From assembly GCA_964016885.1 (NCBI GenBank), contig OZ024749.1, positions 41,850,001-41,914,000 of the forward strand: a DNA stretch of 64,000 nucleotides. The letters run 5' to 3'. Source of the DNA: Eledone cirrhosa. Taxonomy: Eukaryota. The position numbers and the translations under genes are program-made. Below the pieces are notes generated by a model that was not told the origin of the DNA, did no database searches, and saw only the letters and a program-made list of their open reading frames with translations. Numbering within the stretch: the stretch's first letter is position 1; every line of letters begins with the position of its first letter. This document shows positions 18,820 to 55,100 of this stretch, one piece after another.

Positions 18820-18878
18820 TTTTGTCTGATGAAAACGTACTGAAACAACACAGTACCTTTGAAATATATATAATAAAG
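18820..18878 (+). ncRNA. Minimal type I hammerhead ribozyme motif
   Basis: Helix I TTTTGT/ATAAAG; CTGATGA; helix II AAAcGTACTG/CAGTACcTTT; GAAA-TATATA-TA (palindromic helix III). Confidence 0.7.
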
Positions 18879-21759
18879 TATATATTTTGATTATGCGAAT
18901 ATTCTTCATTTGTTAACATTTCGAATAATATATATATATATATATATATATATATATATATATATATGGGTGTGTGTGTGAATGTGTGTATGTATATGTG
19001 TGGGTATAATTATATACATTTACTTATATATAAATAAATGTATATAATTATACACACACGGACATATATATATATATATATGTGTGTGTGTAAATATATA
19101 AACAGTGTCCAGTTTGATGAGCTCGACTTTTGGCAAGATTCCCAAAACAATTATCTTAAATATGCTGGAAAGAAGACGGATTAATAAACAAGTAGTTTAT
19201 TTGTTAATTATGTTCTATTTTATTCTATCTTATTTGATTTGATCATTTACTTGGGGGCTTTATTTTCACTTTTAGCCAACGCCTATGAACAAATCACAAA
19301 TACTAACTATATAAAATAAAGTAATTCAGGCAAGGGGAACGAATGTTAAGTTGCCTTACAAGGCAGACAACGAAGTTCATTGTGTGTTTATGTATGATAA
19401 CAGCTAAATAATGGCTTACAACCGTTTGTGTCGTTGTTGTAAGTCAGGTGTAGTTTGTCGTTTGTAAGAAGCTGTAAAGATGATATAACAGCGATATAAC
19501 GACTGTTGGCAGCCTTTTAATGGTTCTAGCCGTATGGACTCTTGTTATGTTATATTAGCAACACACACACACACAAACAAACAATCTGTTGTTACGTTCA
19601 CTGTGTGATGTAGAAGAAGATGATAACCAGTTTAAACTTTAAATGGACCCCAAATAACGAATTCTTGTAATAGGATGCTTATTTATCAGCGCAGTTTTTA
19701 ATAAGACAGATTAGTTAGGGAACACACACGCACACACACACATATATATATTTATATATATAATATATACGTATATATACATATATGAATAAGTAAAAAC
19801 AAAAGCAAAACTCGAGCTTTTGGCTATGATTACTAAACCAACTTTGTCTCTCATTCGGGAATTCTGAGATGGTTATCGAAGTTCCAGGTAAGAACTAATT
19901 TGTGACTAAATTTTAAACAGAATATTATATAACTATCTAGATACAAATAAATATTTATATATGTGTCAGTGGGAAACTTTTAAACACTAGTGAATTATTA
20001 GGAATGTACCATATATATATTAGGAATTATTAGGAATGTACCTATATATATATATATATATATATCTAGTGTATATATATCTATATATATATATATATAT
20101 ATATATATATATATATATATATATATATCTAGTGTATATATATATACACTATGATATACTACACTTTGTTATTAATGTAAATACTTGTAATATAACCAAA
20201 CTAAACAGACACTACCATACACAAACATATATATATATACACAAATACATACACACACATCTATATACAGATATACATCGACATAAACACATCCACACAT
20301 AACACACGAAATACGTACACAGATCACAAGGACTTGGATCGGCACGGACACTATAGATATATCTAGCTATCCATCTATATTATTTTATTATAGAAATGAC
20401 TTCTACAGGACTAGAACTGTTTCATTCGCAATAAATCATCCTCACCATCATCTCTCTCTCTATATATATATATATACACTGTTCACCCCGGTGTAAAGCA
20501 ATAAATGTACACGTAGATGATATATTATAAAAACTGTACAGTACCCCCAAACAATTCTTTATCCGCATTTTTTATGAATTGGGGGTAAAAAAAAATCCTT
20601 TATATATATAGTTCGCGGGTTATTGAACAACAAAGTTTAACTAACCCAAGTTCTTATTACCAAATTAAAAAAAAGTATCCTTATATAATTCTCAAAACCA
20701 TGCGCGCTGAAATCGTCTGCTGACTCTCCCTATATATTTAATCGTATTTTATGCATGTAACTTTTATTTACATAAAATACTCAAATGTATTTCTAGAATA
20801 AAATTACATAAAAACAATAAAGAATTTAATATAATTGCTTCTAACATAATACACACATCCCCATGTTTTCAAGAAAGGGTTTAGTCGATTAATTCCACTC
20901 AAGTATTTGAACCGGTATTTTATCGATAGCAACACCTAATATAATTGTTTCTACTTTAGGCACAAGGCCAGCAATTACGGGGTCGATAAAATAAAGTACC
21001 AGTAATGCACTGGCATTACTGGTACTTTATTTTATCGACCCCCGTAAGGATGAAAGGCAAATATAATAATAATAATAATTGTGTCTACTTTAGGCACAAG
21101 GCCAGTAATTTAAAGGCAATGAGAATGTCGATTAAATTGACTCCAGTGCGTTACTGGTACTTTATTTTATTGACCTCCGTGAGCATGAAAGGCAAAGCTA
21201 ACCTCGGCGGGATTTGAACTCAGACCGTAAAGGGCCGTGACTATGCATCGAAGCAGGGCGTCCGACCTTCTACCGACACTGCCAATCCACCGTGCTTTCT
21301 GATTTAGGCACAAGGTCAGGAAGGGTTTATGAATTAAAATGTCTTCCTTATTTGAACCGGTATTTTATATTCTCGATCGATCCCAGAAGGATTGAAAGTC
21401 AAACTTGACACAACCATATTTGAACTTAGAACGTTCAGAGCCGGACACACATTTAATAATGCTACACTTTGTCATATATGTTATATGTTGATAGTAGTTA
21501 AGATGAAAATGTGTTATTTATAATATCCTAATTTAGTCCATAATTATGAATTTTTACATATGTTAAGACGTGTATAACTATGCATATATATATTTATATA
21601 TATATATATATATATATATATATATATATATATATATATATATATATATATTATATTACTGGGAAAAAATAGAAGAAAAGGGAAGTGTATATAATAAAGT
21701 CGGGGGAAAAGACCAACGAAGTTAACCACACACATCACAACAAGCGGTGCTGGAGCTTT

Positions 21760-52100: not shown

Positions 52101-55100
52101 TCTGCGTGTGCATGTGTATATGTGTGTTTTTTTGTCATTGTAATCATTTTTATCAGTGTGGCATCAAGAATTAAATAAAAAGAAAAAAAAGGTCTTGTCT
52201 GCCAAAATGACATTGTAAGTGAAACAAGTTGTTGCTATATTTAACTTTAGAAGCAACCATCACCATCACTTAGAAACCACCACCACTGCCGCCACCATCA
52301 TCACTTGACAAGCATCATCATCACTTAAAATTCAGCATCAGCAGTACCATTATTTGAAAACCGCCATCAACCCTTGAAAACTCCCATCACCATTCCGCAA
52401 TAACCACCATCACTTGAAAAAAACCCACCACCATTATCTTATCATCCCTCAAAAACCACCAATATTATCACTCGAAAGCCACCCTCACTTGAAAACCACC
52501 ATCACCATCACTTAAAAAAACCCCACCATCACTTGAAAACCATCAGGATCATCCCCTGAAAACCAGCATCAGCAAAATCTTCCCTTGAAAACTATCATTA
52601 TCTCTTGATAATGGGCGGTGGATTGGCAGTATCGATAGAGGGTCGGACGTCATGCTTTGACGCATAGAGTTACGGCCCTTGCCATTCTGAGTTCAAATCT
52701 CGCCAAGGTCAACTTTGCCTTTCATCCTTGCGGGGTCGATAAAATAAAGTACCAGTAATGTACTGGGTAATTTCTGGCCTTGTGCTAATAGTAGAAACAA
52801 TTATCTCTTGATAACCACCATTACCATCATTTAAAAAAACCTGCCACCATCACCTCACTATCACTTGAAAACTACCACCATCATCACTTGAAAATCACCA
52901 TCACCTCACCATCACTTGAAAACCACAACCATCACCTTACCATCACTTGAAAACCACCATCACCTGAAAACCTCATCAAGCCATCAAATTCTCATCTGGA
53001 AAGAACTGTTAAAGAAATCAGAAACGTTATCTGTTGACTTGTGTTTCTTTAACTAAACAATACAATAGTCTCAGACGGCTGTTTAAATTATGTTCCCACT
53101 TTTTTTCCACTGTTATTTTAGTTGTATTTTGACTCTCTTTTATATGTATGTAAACAGTGTTGTCCTTTTTTCTCCTTCCCCTCCACCTGCCAACTCCCCT
53201 CTCCGCCTCAAGCCATAACACCCATACGACCTAATGATGTTGGGTGGATGGATGACTCAGTTTGTAAGTCTAGTATAGTAGTCATGCACTCTATGATATA
53301 ATAGATAGATAGATATCAACAGATGGTAACTGGATAGCTACAGTCTGGGCTGGTGCAACCATCAAGGCCAACTAGGCAGCTGCTTAGGGCACATTACTGA
53401 ACCTTAAAGGATGACTGTTTTATACATATTTGTATCAACAGATGGTAACTGGATAGCTACAGTCTGGGCTGGTGCAACCATCAAGGCCAACTAAGCTACC
53501 TCAGAGAGACACATTACTGAACCTTAACCCTTTAGCATTTAAACTGGCTTTATCTGGCCAGAATTCTCTCTCCTCTTTCTGTTCAAACTGGCTGTAACTG
53601 GCCACTTATACTTATGTTAAGGTATTGATCTCAAAATAAATAATATCAAAATCTCATAGATTCGATATTATGTGAGGTAATTATGTGAGGTAAAGCCTTT
53701 ACTGTGAAAATTTAATAGTAAATATAGAGTAATGTAAATGGTAAAGGAACATGGTTTAATACATATTTATGTCAACTGATGGTGATTGGATAGCTACAGT
53801 CTGGGCTGGTGCTACCATAAAGGTAAACTAGTTAGCTACGTAGGGCACATACCTGGGAGAATGGGGCACACATTGTAAAGCTAGTCTAGAGCTGGCACTG
53901 GACACAGTGTGTAGATTATGATTGGATATATATAGTGTGTAGATTTTGGCTGGATATATAGTGTGTAGATGTTGAGTGGGTGTATACAGTGTATGGATGT
54001 TGACTAGGTATATACATATATATATATATATATATATATGTATGTATGTATATATGTATATAAGAGCATTGGCCTTGCAATCAAAGGCCAATGCTCTTAT
54101 ATACATATATACATACATATATATATATATATATATATATATATATATATGTATATATATATATATATGTATATATATATATATATATAAGAGCATTGGC
54201 CTTTGATTGCAAGGCCAATGCTCTTATATACATATATACATATATATATATATATATATATATATGTATGTATATATGTATATAAGAGCATTGGCCTCTG
54301 ATTGCAAGGCCAATGCTCTTATATACATATATATATATACATATATATATATATATATGTATGTATATATGTATATAAGAGCATTGGCCTTGCAATCGAA
54401 AAGTTGTGAGTTCAATTCTCAGACCGGGTGATGTGTTGTTTCCTTGAGCAAGACACTTTATTTCACATTGCTCCAGTTTACTCAGCTGTAGAAATGAGAT
54501 GATAGGGACCGGGGTCCCTATCATTCCACTGCAAAGTGGCCGTGGAGGTGCCACGGCAAAAAAAGCACCCAGCACTCACTGTAAATGAGGTTGGTGTTAG
54601 GAAGGGCATCCAGCTGTAGAAATCAAGCCAGAATCAGTTCCCATCCCACCCTTGCAAGCAGGGAAAAGTGGACGTAAAATGATGATGATGATACAGTGTG
54701 TAGATATTGACTGGATATATATATATATATATGTAGGAGGTGAGTTTTATTGTAGTACAATAAAGCAATGCAGATATCAGATAAGAAGCACTCTACAGTT
54801 TGTAGGACTGGAGTATACATAATATATAAGATCAAAAGATGGTTAAATGAGTTCCATATATTTTATTATGCGCATTTCAAAAACAAATATCATCATGCAA
54901 TAACATTTGTGTTTTCATCAGATAAAATAGGAGGACATGATATGAAGGTTAAAAACACTTGTGGATAGTGCAGTTTTAATTAATATAGATATATACAGTG
55001 TGTAGATATTGACTGGATATATATATATATATATATACAGTGTGTAGATATTGACTGGATATATATATATATATATATATATATATATATATATATATAT

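Follow-up and report, generated by a model that had tools for sequence, protein, structure and literature searches.

Hammerhead motifs in a window of the Eledone cirrhosa genome very probably mark truncated ends of Hydra-like Penelope elements

The window, a 64,000-nt stretch of the Eledone cirrhosa genome (contig OZ024749.1, positions 41,850,001 to 41,914,000), contains six complete hammerhead motifs of four families, A to D. Very probably those of families A, B and C, and likely that of D, are the hammerheads of pLTRs (pseudo-LTRs) from Penelope-like elements (PLEs) with Hydra motifs, and what stands in the window are short or head-to-head ends, the likely product of reverse transcription that was primed at nicked (TA)n and stopped early. 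The window is ordinary in this respect, and such hammerheads are the usual footprint of an already described clade.

Hammerhead families and their coding partners

The initial annotation had placed six complete motifs in the window, and all were borne out in position and strand, each with CUGANGA, a paired helix II, GAAA, UH and a helix I. All six have the type I order, with these blocks around helices I and II. Helix II has 9 to 15 pairs (at most one mismatch) and is interrupted after the third pair by a mismatch or an internal loop; helix I has 5 to 11 pairs. As had been proposed for most of them, five of the six carry a 6-nt palindrome or near-palindrome instead of helix III (TATATA twice, TGCGCA twice and TGTGCA once); the exception is the motif at 34503, where that position is taken by two pairs plus a 3-nt loop. 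In predicted monomer folds helices I and II formed in five of six motifs and helix III in none. A description of these motifs as minimal type I hammerheads is right as to type, which is the Penelope-like pLTR kind, and wrong as to minimal: helix II is long, and 6 to 7 nt are kept where the helix III of min-HHRs goes down to the conserved core. (TA)n adjoins all six elements, as annotated.

The four families, described as unrelated, do separate when the cut-off is set near 84% identity, yet they are related through their proteins (49% identity over 245 aa between families B and C) and through a second RNA hairpin common to A, B, C and D. Likewise, the statement that the window encodes no retroelement protein holds for Penelope-like ORFs, none of which was found in the window or in 10 kb on either side save one weak match (63611-63769, E=0.002), but not for LINEs. 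An RTE-like fragment lies at 16851-17177 (62% to an RTE ORF, E=8e-33) and a second LINE fragment at 59615-59833.

Elsewhere in the genome families A, B and C run into RT and GIY-YIG coding sequence, the PLE partner that the initial annotation had suggested seeking. The window copies of these families have 94 to 98% identity (one arm 86%) to the pLTRs of elements with an RT plus a GIY-YIG domain at the C terminus. The full unit has the order pLTR, hammerhead, hairpin 1, hairpin 2, ORF (RT, CxCX5C linker, GIY-YIG), 3′ UTR, pLTR. In family C the RT/EN sequence lies upstream of 99%-identical pLTRs, and element L191 has an intact frame of 821 codons (an ORF of 800 aa, at 1192-3594 of L191). Family B forms a pLTR-ORF-pLTR unit of 4,097 bp in L127/L193, and family A has RT, linker, EN, 3′ UTR and pLTR in L164. 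The layout is thus a single ORF with RT followed by GIY-YIG, intact in C (L191) and with broken frames in B and A.

The family B protein has the motifs RWK and DKT, that of family C RWT and DKT, and the family A copy is truncated before these positions. The CxCX5C linker and CxxC..E occur in A, B and C, CxH in B and C, and YRDD is also among the protein motifs found in these elements. Domain names come from these motifs and from the Atlas neighbours of the proteins, which carry GIY-YIG and RVT_1; a Pfam search with 7 and 6 proteins gave no RT or GIY-YIG match, and a PDB search with a 34-sequence profile gave no RT or nuclease match. A first guess of the Neptune clade was dropped after RWK, DKT and CxCX5C were seen. 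By these protein motifs, on which the clade was assigned, the A, B and C elements appear to match Hydra-clade PLEs.

Family D showed a continuous ORF link in none of 50 loci (30 loci, and 20 loci with 5 kb upstream). PLE ORFs near family D in L183 and L190 have TA/CA tracts or an inverted arm between and look like other insertions. A first aimed pattern for a family D partner gave no match and a second gave three, with L273 entering a degenerate hairpin 2 and no ORF following. The layout, tail and hairpin of family D are the same as those of A to C, and it is likely a Penelope-like pLTR hammerhead too.

Insertion ends and a twin bulged hairpin

Inserted copies stop at two fixed points, end 1 and end 2, neither of which is the ribozyme cut site, and the "tail" between the two is the element's own 5′ UTR. 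The family A copy has an inverted tail piece on the minus strand (18729-18786), which runs from end 2 and stops just before hairpin 1, and a plus-strand pLTR arm (18787-18929; hammerhead 18820-18878, predicted cut after 18872) that stops at end 1, followed by (TA)20, and has 97% identity to the pLTR of the RT-EN element L164. In family D a minus-strand arm (34475-34590, hammerhead 34503-34573) stops at end 1 against (TA)7, and the opposite, tail-bearing arm (34597-34696, plus) has bulged hairpin 1 at 34636-34659. Family B is a solo plus-strand pLTR arm between TA tracts (43764-43979; hammerhead 43875-43929, predicted cut after 43924); it stops at end 1 and has 98% identity to both pLTRs of the full-length L193.

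Family C is present in three places. A short solo arm in a long TA tract (48525-48631, minus; hammerhead 48559-48626) stops at end 1 and has 94% identity to L191. In a head-to-head pair, a tail-bearing arm broken within helix II (50052-50229, minus; hairpin 1 at 50109-50136) and an opposite arm that stops at end 1 against (TA)n (50307-50510, plus; hammerhead 50407-50477; 86% identity to L191) are joined by a perfect fold-back spacer, the turn between them (50236-50300). The third arm carries a tail (54730-54979, minus; hammerhead 54859-54929, hairpin 1 54787-54814), stops at end 2 against (TA)8 and has 95% identity to the intact L191. An apparent target-site duplication at 54730 was set aside; it sits in a 42-bp tandem array, and duplications are unreadable within (TA)n.

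The earlier count of about 11 copies, decayed ones included, is fair: six motifs are complete, four are broken or partial, and several further pieces consist of tail only. Besides the broken arm at 50052-50229, the partial motifs are a hammerhead of a related family without its 5′ core strand (29015-29114, minus), a related piece within (TA)n that begins near the predicted cut site and reaches end 1 (26342-26397, plus), and a different family with a minimal-type core at 45842 (45725-45860, minus), with a helix I mismatch in this copy. The same bulged hairpin occurs in the tail of another TA-inserted repeat (14180-14206, plus) and in tail pieces of other families at 34139-34165 (plus) and 49490-49517 (minus).

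Among 30 family B arms, 15 were at end 1, 14 at end 2, and one continued into the ORF; head-to-head insertions seen within 1.5 kb joined one end-1 and one end-2 arm in eight of eight cases. Families A, B and C, like a fifth cluster, show two end classes, and D shows three less sharp ones. Insertion into (TA)n, a pLTR hammerhead and an inverted arm with a one-sided tail, by which the Hydra clade is recognised, were all found here.

A bulged hairpin with compensatory changes lies 0 to 7 nt behind each fixed point in this genome; in family B each point is 4 to 7 nt before a hairpin. It spans 24 to 30 nt, with the form RCUC-helix-loop-helix-2-nt bulge-GAGY-RCU, and hairpin 2 is imperfect in families B and C. 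The three inner positions were all paired with the 2-nt bulge in 116 of 184 anchor matches (3 to 26 in other registers), and in 0 of 45 in the reversed control. Published consensi from coral, sea cucumber and copepod, as well as metagenome relatives, also have it in this placement; in the published Hydra-1_Obim it was not evident. For covariation, 15 of the metagenome hairpins, chosen by length only, were 96% paired with 14 double changes, a level reached in 0 of 500 shuffles. In the metagenome relatives the hairpin precedes the ORF in 30 of 37, with two hairpins in 18. The repeat stops 0 to 6 nt before the hairpin in 8 of 15 informative metagenome loci, the other seven stopping at 12 nt (one), before variant hairpins recognised by eye (three), inside the hammerhead (two) or unclearly (one).

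From these sequence features, the hairpin behind each end likely positions reverse transcription. We are somewhat inclined to a fuller reading, a clade-wide signal of Hydra-clade PLEs, in which each of two bulged hairpins in the 5′ UTR would place the start of the telomerase-related RT slightly 5′ of itself, within a few bases, on a UA-rich patch that pairs with the primer, and the two nicked (TA)n strands would use both, explaining the fixed ends, inverted arms and one-sided tail. The element's protein would bind the bulged hairpin and the nuclease would nick the (TA)n target. The free DNA end would then pair with a few UA-rich bases directly 5′ of the hairpin, and the RT would start at this hairpin-side patch, inside the RNA. 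Because the two target strands would use two hairpins, inverted arms and a one-sided tail would result. The hammerhead would stay uncut in the template of these copies, and cutting would require two copies to pair by way of the palindrome, as in a tandem transcript and perhaps with help from the element's protein. Cutting would then process or limit the RNA, and would not set the insertion ends.

The hairpins may instead be a translation, DNA-level promoter or packaging signal of the 5′ UTR that lies near ends made by TA-like microhomology, which we think unlikely. In many relatives hairpin 2 is separated by about 35 to 60 nt from the point where the ORF match begins downstream, and TA-rich bases precede both hairpins, as such a signal would allow. 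Yet many TA-rich pLTR stretches, including the TATATA of the hammerhead, are unused as ends, while two copies of one motif each stand behind one of the two ends, with pairing kept through double changes.

It is about equally unlikely, though compatible with the preferred reading of truncated PLE ends, that mobility is driven by ribozyme cutting and a circularised RNA of unit length, on which the RT circles to make the tandem pLTR, the hairpins marking the start only. This model was proposed in PMC4209133. Different lineages have retained the core, the helices and the palindrome, so the predicted cutting is probably selected, and the piece at 26342-26397 starts at about the cut site. However, the cut site coincides with neither of the fixed ends, insertion in vitro persisted in catalytic mutants of Poseidon_Ac (PMC11167929), and a start at a TATATA cut site looks the same as annealing to a TA target. 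The cut site was rejected as the insertion end for 3′ ends; the B sample demanded an intact hammerhead, so that copies starting at the cut site are invisible in it.

The copies had been taken for a non-autonomous population, and this view found no support: A, B and C are continuous with RT and GIY-YIG coding sequence, and the copies, solo or head to head, form no head-to-tail arrays in the window, while the first 100 matches listed for B or C include no such array shorter than 1 kb. Since A, B and C are nearly identical to the pLTRs of RT and GIY-YIG elements, we regard the copies as mostly truncated, often inverted ends of autonomous elements and not as retrozymes. That the short copies are truly non-autonomous, retrozyme- or SINE-like, with solo-pLTR RNA copied in trans by a PLE protein, possibly in a cut or circular form, is improbable. 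Short copies are in the majority (an upstream extension of at least 1 kb occurs in only 6 of 30 B arms), an origin of retrozymes from pLTRs has been proposed (bioRxiv 10.64898/2026.07.22.740005), and the short arms carry hairpin 1 and therefore could recruit the protein. Against this, many arms stop at end 2, in the 5′ UTR, and such copies, being without hairpin 2, would be unable to template their own end under the hairpin model.

Eight of the 30 B arms share one 5′ start, 122 to 124 nt before the core, which early stopping alone does not predict and a non-autonomous RNA might. This point is, however, a TA-like palindrome, able to anneal with the target or to fold onto itself. A short non-autonomous RNA is possible for these copies and for family D, with its lack of a linked ORF in the loci searched.

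Controls and genome-wide abundance

Chance motifs in AT-rich, low-complexity DNA, for which the window's 34% GC and many microsatellites might speak, are refuted as an explanation by the controls and have practically no probability left. The descriptor of the six motifs gave no match in 200 block-wise dinucleotide shuffles and none in the reversed window; one match appeared in 2 of 200 whole-window shuffles. One hammerhead pattern matched at least 106,146 times genome-wide, against 76 in the reversed control. Among motifs of seven clusters, gathered without requiring pairing, helix II was paired at 21 of 21 (14.6 on average after shuffling, with 4 of 5000 shuffles reaching the observed value) and helix I at 35 of 35 (31.0 on average, 60 of 5000 shuffles reaching it), the covariation that had been sought. 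In an Rfam scan no hammerhead family was among the best 150 of 389 rows, all of them sub-threshold hits of miRNA models to microsatellites.

The motifs are real, yet they form no special cluster in this window, contrary to what had been claimed. The genome-wide number, about 35 per Mb in 3.0 Gb, gives 2.27 expected per window, against five observed pattern matches (P=0.08), with none in the 20 kb beside it. The 50-nt motif of family B has 3,790 exact copies in the genome, counted by pattern match. For scale, the total found here in 3.0 Gb may be set against at most 120,000 in the 28 Gb of the axolotl, a rough comparison with different descriptors. The families are young, and an intact ORF is available for assay.

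If the hairpin reading is true, this system left more than 100,000 hammerheads in the genome, at the density given above. For the way in which the RTs of PLEs, the sister group of telomerase, choose internal starts and make tails, the twin hairpin is a candidate backed by covariation. It may also serve as a marker for annotating Hydra elements.

Comparison with known systems

Like metazoan non-LTR retrozymes, which reach up to 120,000 copies in the axolotl, the copies here have type I hammerheads, very high copy number, AT-richness and short length (PMC7229834; bioRxiv 10.64898/2026.07.22.740005). Retrozymes are described as head-to-tail repeats of 150 to 450 bp without coding sequence (Cervera and De la Pena 2020, PMC7229834; Li et al. 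2026, bioRxiv 10.64898/2026.07.22.740005). In contrast, our copies are solo or head to head, A, B and C continue into RT-EN as part of coding elements, and head-to-tail units of a few hundred bp with at least two hammerheads were found neither in the window nor in the first 100 matches listed for B or C.

Like the metazoan PLE pLTR hammerheads reported by Cervera and De la Pena (2014, PMC4209133), the motifs are of type I with a small palindromic helix III and predicted dimer activity. Unlike the min-HHRs of that report, all six keep a stretch of 6 to 7 nt there and a helix II of 9 to 15 pairs; the core at 45842 resembles a min-HHR.

In Poseidon_Ac, in vitro initiation was internal, at two sites bounding the tail, with the ribozyme uncut (Frangieh et al. 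2024, PMC11167929). Two internal RT starts would likewise bound the tail here, as judged from insertion ends, and the AT-rich target, extension of both strands, uncut RNA as template and protein-assisted hammerhead would also correspond. The Poseidon_Ac starts are in one AC-rich stem-loop inside the ORF, whereas those here would be in the 5′ UTR, where a conserved bulged hairpin occurs in two copies and each start would lie immediately 5′ of one copy. Poseidon_Ac is of a different clade.

The closest likeness is to the Hydra clade, whose definition in section 11 of PMC8557442 (Craig et al. 2021) names (TA)n as target and includes a family from octopus. Like that clade and Hydra-1_Obim, the elements here have a single ORF with RT and C-terminal GIY-YIG, the motifs RWK, DKT, CxCX5C, CxxC and CxH, a canonical-type pLTR hammerhead, (TA)n targets and an inverted, 5′-truncated copy with a one-sided tail. 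The hammerhead sequences differ from that of Hydra-1_Obim, so the families are different. Units are 3.6 to 4.1 kb against less than 3 kb in that description, tails about 60 to 100 nt against 30 to 40, and helix III palindromes are of the TA/CG type with an AUA cut triplet, unlike those described. The twin hairpin goes without mention in the clade description of PMC8557442, and the more than 100,000 motif matches in this genome compare with the few new families described there.

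Hammerheads of the window

The six hammerheads listed in the initial annotation are all present at their sites. We searched with a descriptor requiring the core, a helix II of at least 4 pairs, the 15.2-16.2 pair and a helix I of at least 4 pairs. Its matches in the window were exactly these six motifs, compared with none in 200 block shuffles or in the reversed window and one match in 2 of 200 whole-window shuffles. The palindrome-type motif, searched as a pattern, matched 106,146 times in the 3.0-Gb genome, versus 76 for the reversed pattern. From the genome count 2.27 matches per window are expected and 5 were found (P=0.08), and the 20 kb beside the window contained no match to this pattern; the motif density is therefore that of the genome background and does not amount to the cluster first described. 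The motif of family B has 3,790 exact genome copies, a 33-nt piece of family C has 10,477, and family D with intact core gives 314 exact matches. A seventh hammerhead core, from another family, lies at 45725-45860 (-). Its helix II is short and contains a bulged A, and in relatives a 4-nt palindrome is all that is left of helix III; its helix I is mismatched in the window copy and paired in the copy at locus L184.

Helices I and II covary among 7 clusters, each with at least two distinct members and two of them being subgroups of D. The first three pairs of helix II were kept with differing letters in 21 of 21 cases and five pairs of helix I in 35 of 35, the latter with a weak control because helix I is AU-rich. 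In most motifs helix III is a hexamer of alternating purines and pyrimidines that could pair between two copies, with predicted duplex energies of -3 to -10 kcal/mol; in predicted monomer folds it was not formed. By analogy with PMC4209133, the hammerheads may cleave as dimers. Despite unlike sequences, helix II of families A, B and C (18836-18859, 43887-43912, 54859-54929) has a C-C or C-U mismatch after the third pair, where D has an internal loop; this may reflect a conserved tertiary interaction with helix I.

Coding elements and insertion ends

By tracing near-identical copies upstream, we reached elements encoding reverse transcriptase (RT) and GIY-YIG nuclease that share the terminal repeat (pLTR) of families A, B and C. 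Families A-C are Penelope-like elements (PLEs). Family C has RT and nuclease frames in loci L032-L035 and, in L191, one unbroken 821-codon frame followed by the hammerhead. Family B in L127 is arranged as inverted arm (an inserted pLTR copy), pLTR, ORF, 3' UTR and pLTR, with a unit of 4,097 bp, and family A in L164 as RT, linker, nuclease, 3' UTR and pLTR. Window copies are 94-98% identical to the pLTRs of these coding elements, with one arm at 86%. No ORF was linked to family D in the loci and aimed pattern searches, though its layout is the same; it is older, its copies being 79-88% identical to one another. The families had been called unrelated and non-autonomous. For A-C the coding partners speak against the second term, and B and C are relatives, since their proteins share 49% identity.

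The window has no PLE ORF, in keeping with the initial annotation; its wider statement that no retroelement protein is encoded does not hold, as RTE-like LINE fragments, up to 62% identical to the RTE ORF in L035, lie at 16851-17177 (+), 59615-59833 (-) and 4916-5138 (-). Broken frames at 29085-29899 (-), including one at 29411-29899, resemble the C-terminal portion of an RT of CR1/L2 type; they had no Pfam hit, and the 29411-29899 frame had no database support. A PLE end (29015-29114) is inserted 3' of these frames. The nuclease region of a single PLE relative weakly matches 63611-63769 (E=0.002), and a dispersed repeat family spans 62400-63970 and about eight further places. Other repeats are a long palindrome of another family between TA tracts (28440-28700), three tandem palindromes, nearly perfect and with TA cores, that close a dispersed repeat (54069-54400), short tail-like pieces adjoining (TA)n (17627-17723 and 50745-50803), and an inverted pair of such pieces, one at either end of 1 kb of TA sequence (25385-25439 and 26494-26548). 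We take about 57250-57550 (+) to be a plausible exon for an Ig-like domain that contains cysteine and is of the kind found in cytokine receptors; a host gene on the + strand may thus contribute intron sequence to the window.

Arms stop at two fixed points. Among the first 30 family B matches listed, 15 stop 98-100 nt past the core start (end 1), 14 at 197-200 (end 2; in BLAST the TA-like bases that follow extend the match to 202-203) and one continues into the ORF. The predicted cut site of family B (+44) is not used as an arm end. The tail, from end 1 to end 2, is 5' UTR. All 8 head-to-head B insertions visible within 1.5 kb pair one arm of each end class, and at two more B loci an inverted tail piece lies downstream. 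Families A and C and a fifth cluster have two end classes each; D has three, less sharp. In the window, solo end-1 arms occur at 43764 and 48525, a solo end-2 arm at 54730, and head-to-head pairs at 18729-18929, 34475-34696 and 50052-50510. At their other side, 8 of 30 B arms start at a TA-like palindrome 122-124 nt ahead of the core. A similar palindrome is the turning point of many C copies, in a sample biased toward copies reaching it. Read-through transcripts of the head-to-head arms at 50052-50510 and 34475-34696 would pair into extended double-stranded RNA, in which the hammerhead fold would be masked and which might serve as a substrate for RNA editing.

A bulged hairpin behind each end

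Comparison of the tails of all four families revealed a hairpin that lies 41-66 nt past the cut site in each and has the layout RCUC, inner helix, 2-nt 3' bulge, GAGY, RCU. In D the outer A-U pair is replaced by G-C, and the inner helix varies by family. In family B, hairpin 1 starts from +105 and hairpin 2 from +204, in both cases 4-7 nt after an end; in family C hairpin 2 lies ahead of the ORF. With anchors picked blind to pairing, 116 of 184 distinct, though not independent, hits were paired at all three inner positions in the 2-nt-bulge register, compared with 26 for a register without a bulge, 3 for a 1-nt bulge and 5 for a 3-nt bulge, and with 0 of 45 hits in reversed sequence. The largest group (31 distinct hits) is a common TA-inserted repeat (window 14130-14250 (+); L104, L154, L171 and other loci), whose hairpin follows a GAAAC-containing stretch outside the hammerhead pattern; this repeat possibly represents a further PLE family whose ribozyme is a variant.

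The hairpin is also found outside this genome. Of the 6 new Hydra consensi in print, 4 show it by eye: Amil-2 (coral), Ajap-1 (sea cucumber, with two copies ahead of the ORF), Ajap-2 (sea cucumber) and, as a variant, Crog-1 (copepod). It was not seen in Obim-1, and the Amil-1 consensus stops too early to show it. Of 77 metagenome loci carrying related ORFs, 37 had at least 140 nt upstream, of which 30 carried at least one anchor and 18 carried two. The flanks gave 77 anchor hits, some being one hairpin twice, versus 14 in 147,984 ORF bases. Thirty metagenome loci have the repeat at both ends; 14 stop at a contig edge, one continues as a tandem, and 8 of the remaining 15 end 0-6 nt ahead of a detected hairpin. 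Fifteen hairpins selected by length alone were 96% paired with 14 double changes, versus 25-63% in slid registers and 0 of 500 shuffles as high, a result that relatedness can inflate. Full-text literature searches, with subscription papers and Repbase Reports outside their range, returned no description of the twin hairpin.

We lean toward a role of the hairpin in RT initiation. An element protein would bind it, one hairpin per target strand; the nicked (TA)n would pair with the UA-rich bases 5' of it, and RT would begin internally, with the stubs presumably left where it stopped early. The ribozyme would work on tandem RNA without setting the insertion ends. Several copies are truncated on the 5' side where a hairpin lies or inside it (L191:1120, L273:1461, window 18729-18786, and loci L104, L119 and L125). 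Among them, one full ORF copy starts at hairpin 2 and tail pieces halt at hairpin 1, as though RT were also blocked by a hairpin with protein bound.

Relation to known Penelope-like elements

The proteins carry RWK (RWT in C), DKT, YRDD, CxCX5C, a GIY-YIG-like stretch, CxxC..E and CxH. Database relatives (n=53, 31-42% identity) share these motifs; the 31 long ones contain DKT in 29, CxCX5C in 27 and RWK in 19. Pfam and PDB searches with the proteins were blank, and the Atlas neighbours at 0.96-0.98 have HTH_animal, GIY-YIG and RVT_1 in some of their members. The motifs of A-C very probably belong to Hydra-type PLEs: they are those given for the Hydra clade, which is described with (TA)n insertion, canonical hammerheads and one Octopus bimaculoides family (PMC8557442). 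In O. vulgaris, 31 Penelope-like families are listed as recently active, in a paper where the word "ribozyme" is absent (PMC13282606). The literature already covers (TA)n targeting, octopus PLEs and the presence of hammerheads in pLTRs of the Hydra clade (PMC8557442; PMC13282606 for O. vulgaris). The present families are new ones within a known element type, and the hairpin is a testable lead on how PLE enzymes start. The solo and head-to-head forms of the window correspond to the inverted pLTR with a one-sided tail described for PLEs (PMC8557442); in Poseidon_Ac this arrangement is reported to result from RT starting at two internal sites of an RNA that is uncut (PMC11167929).
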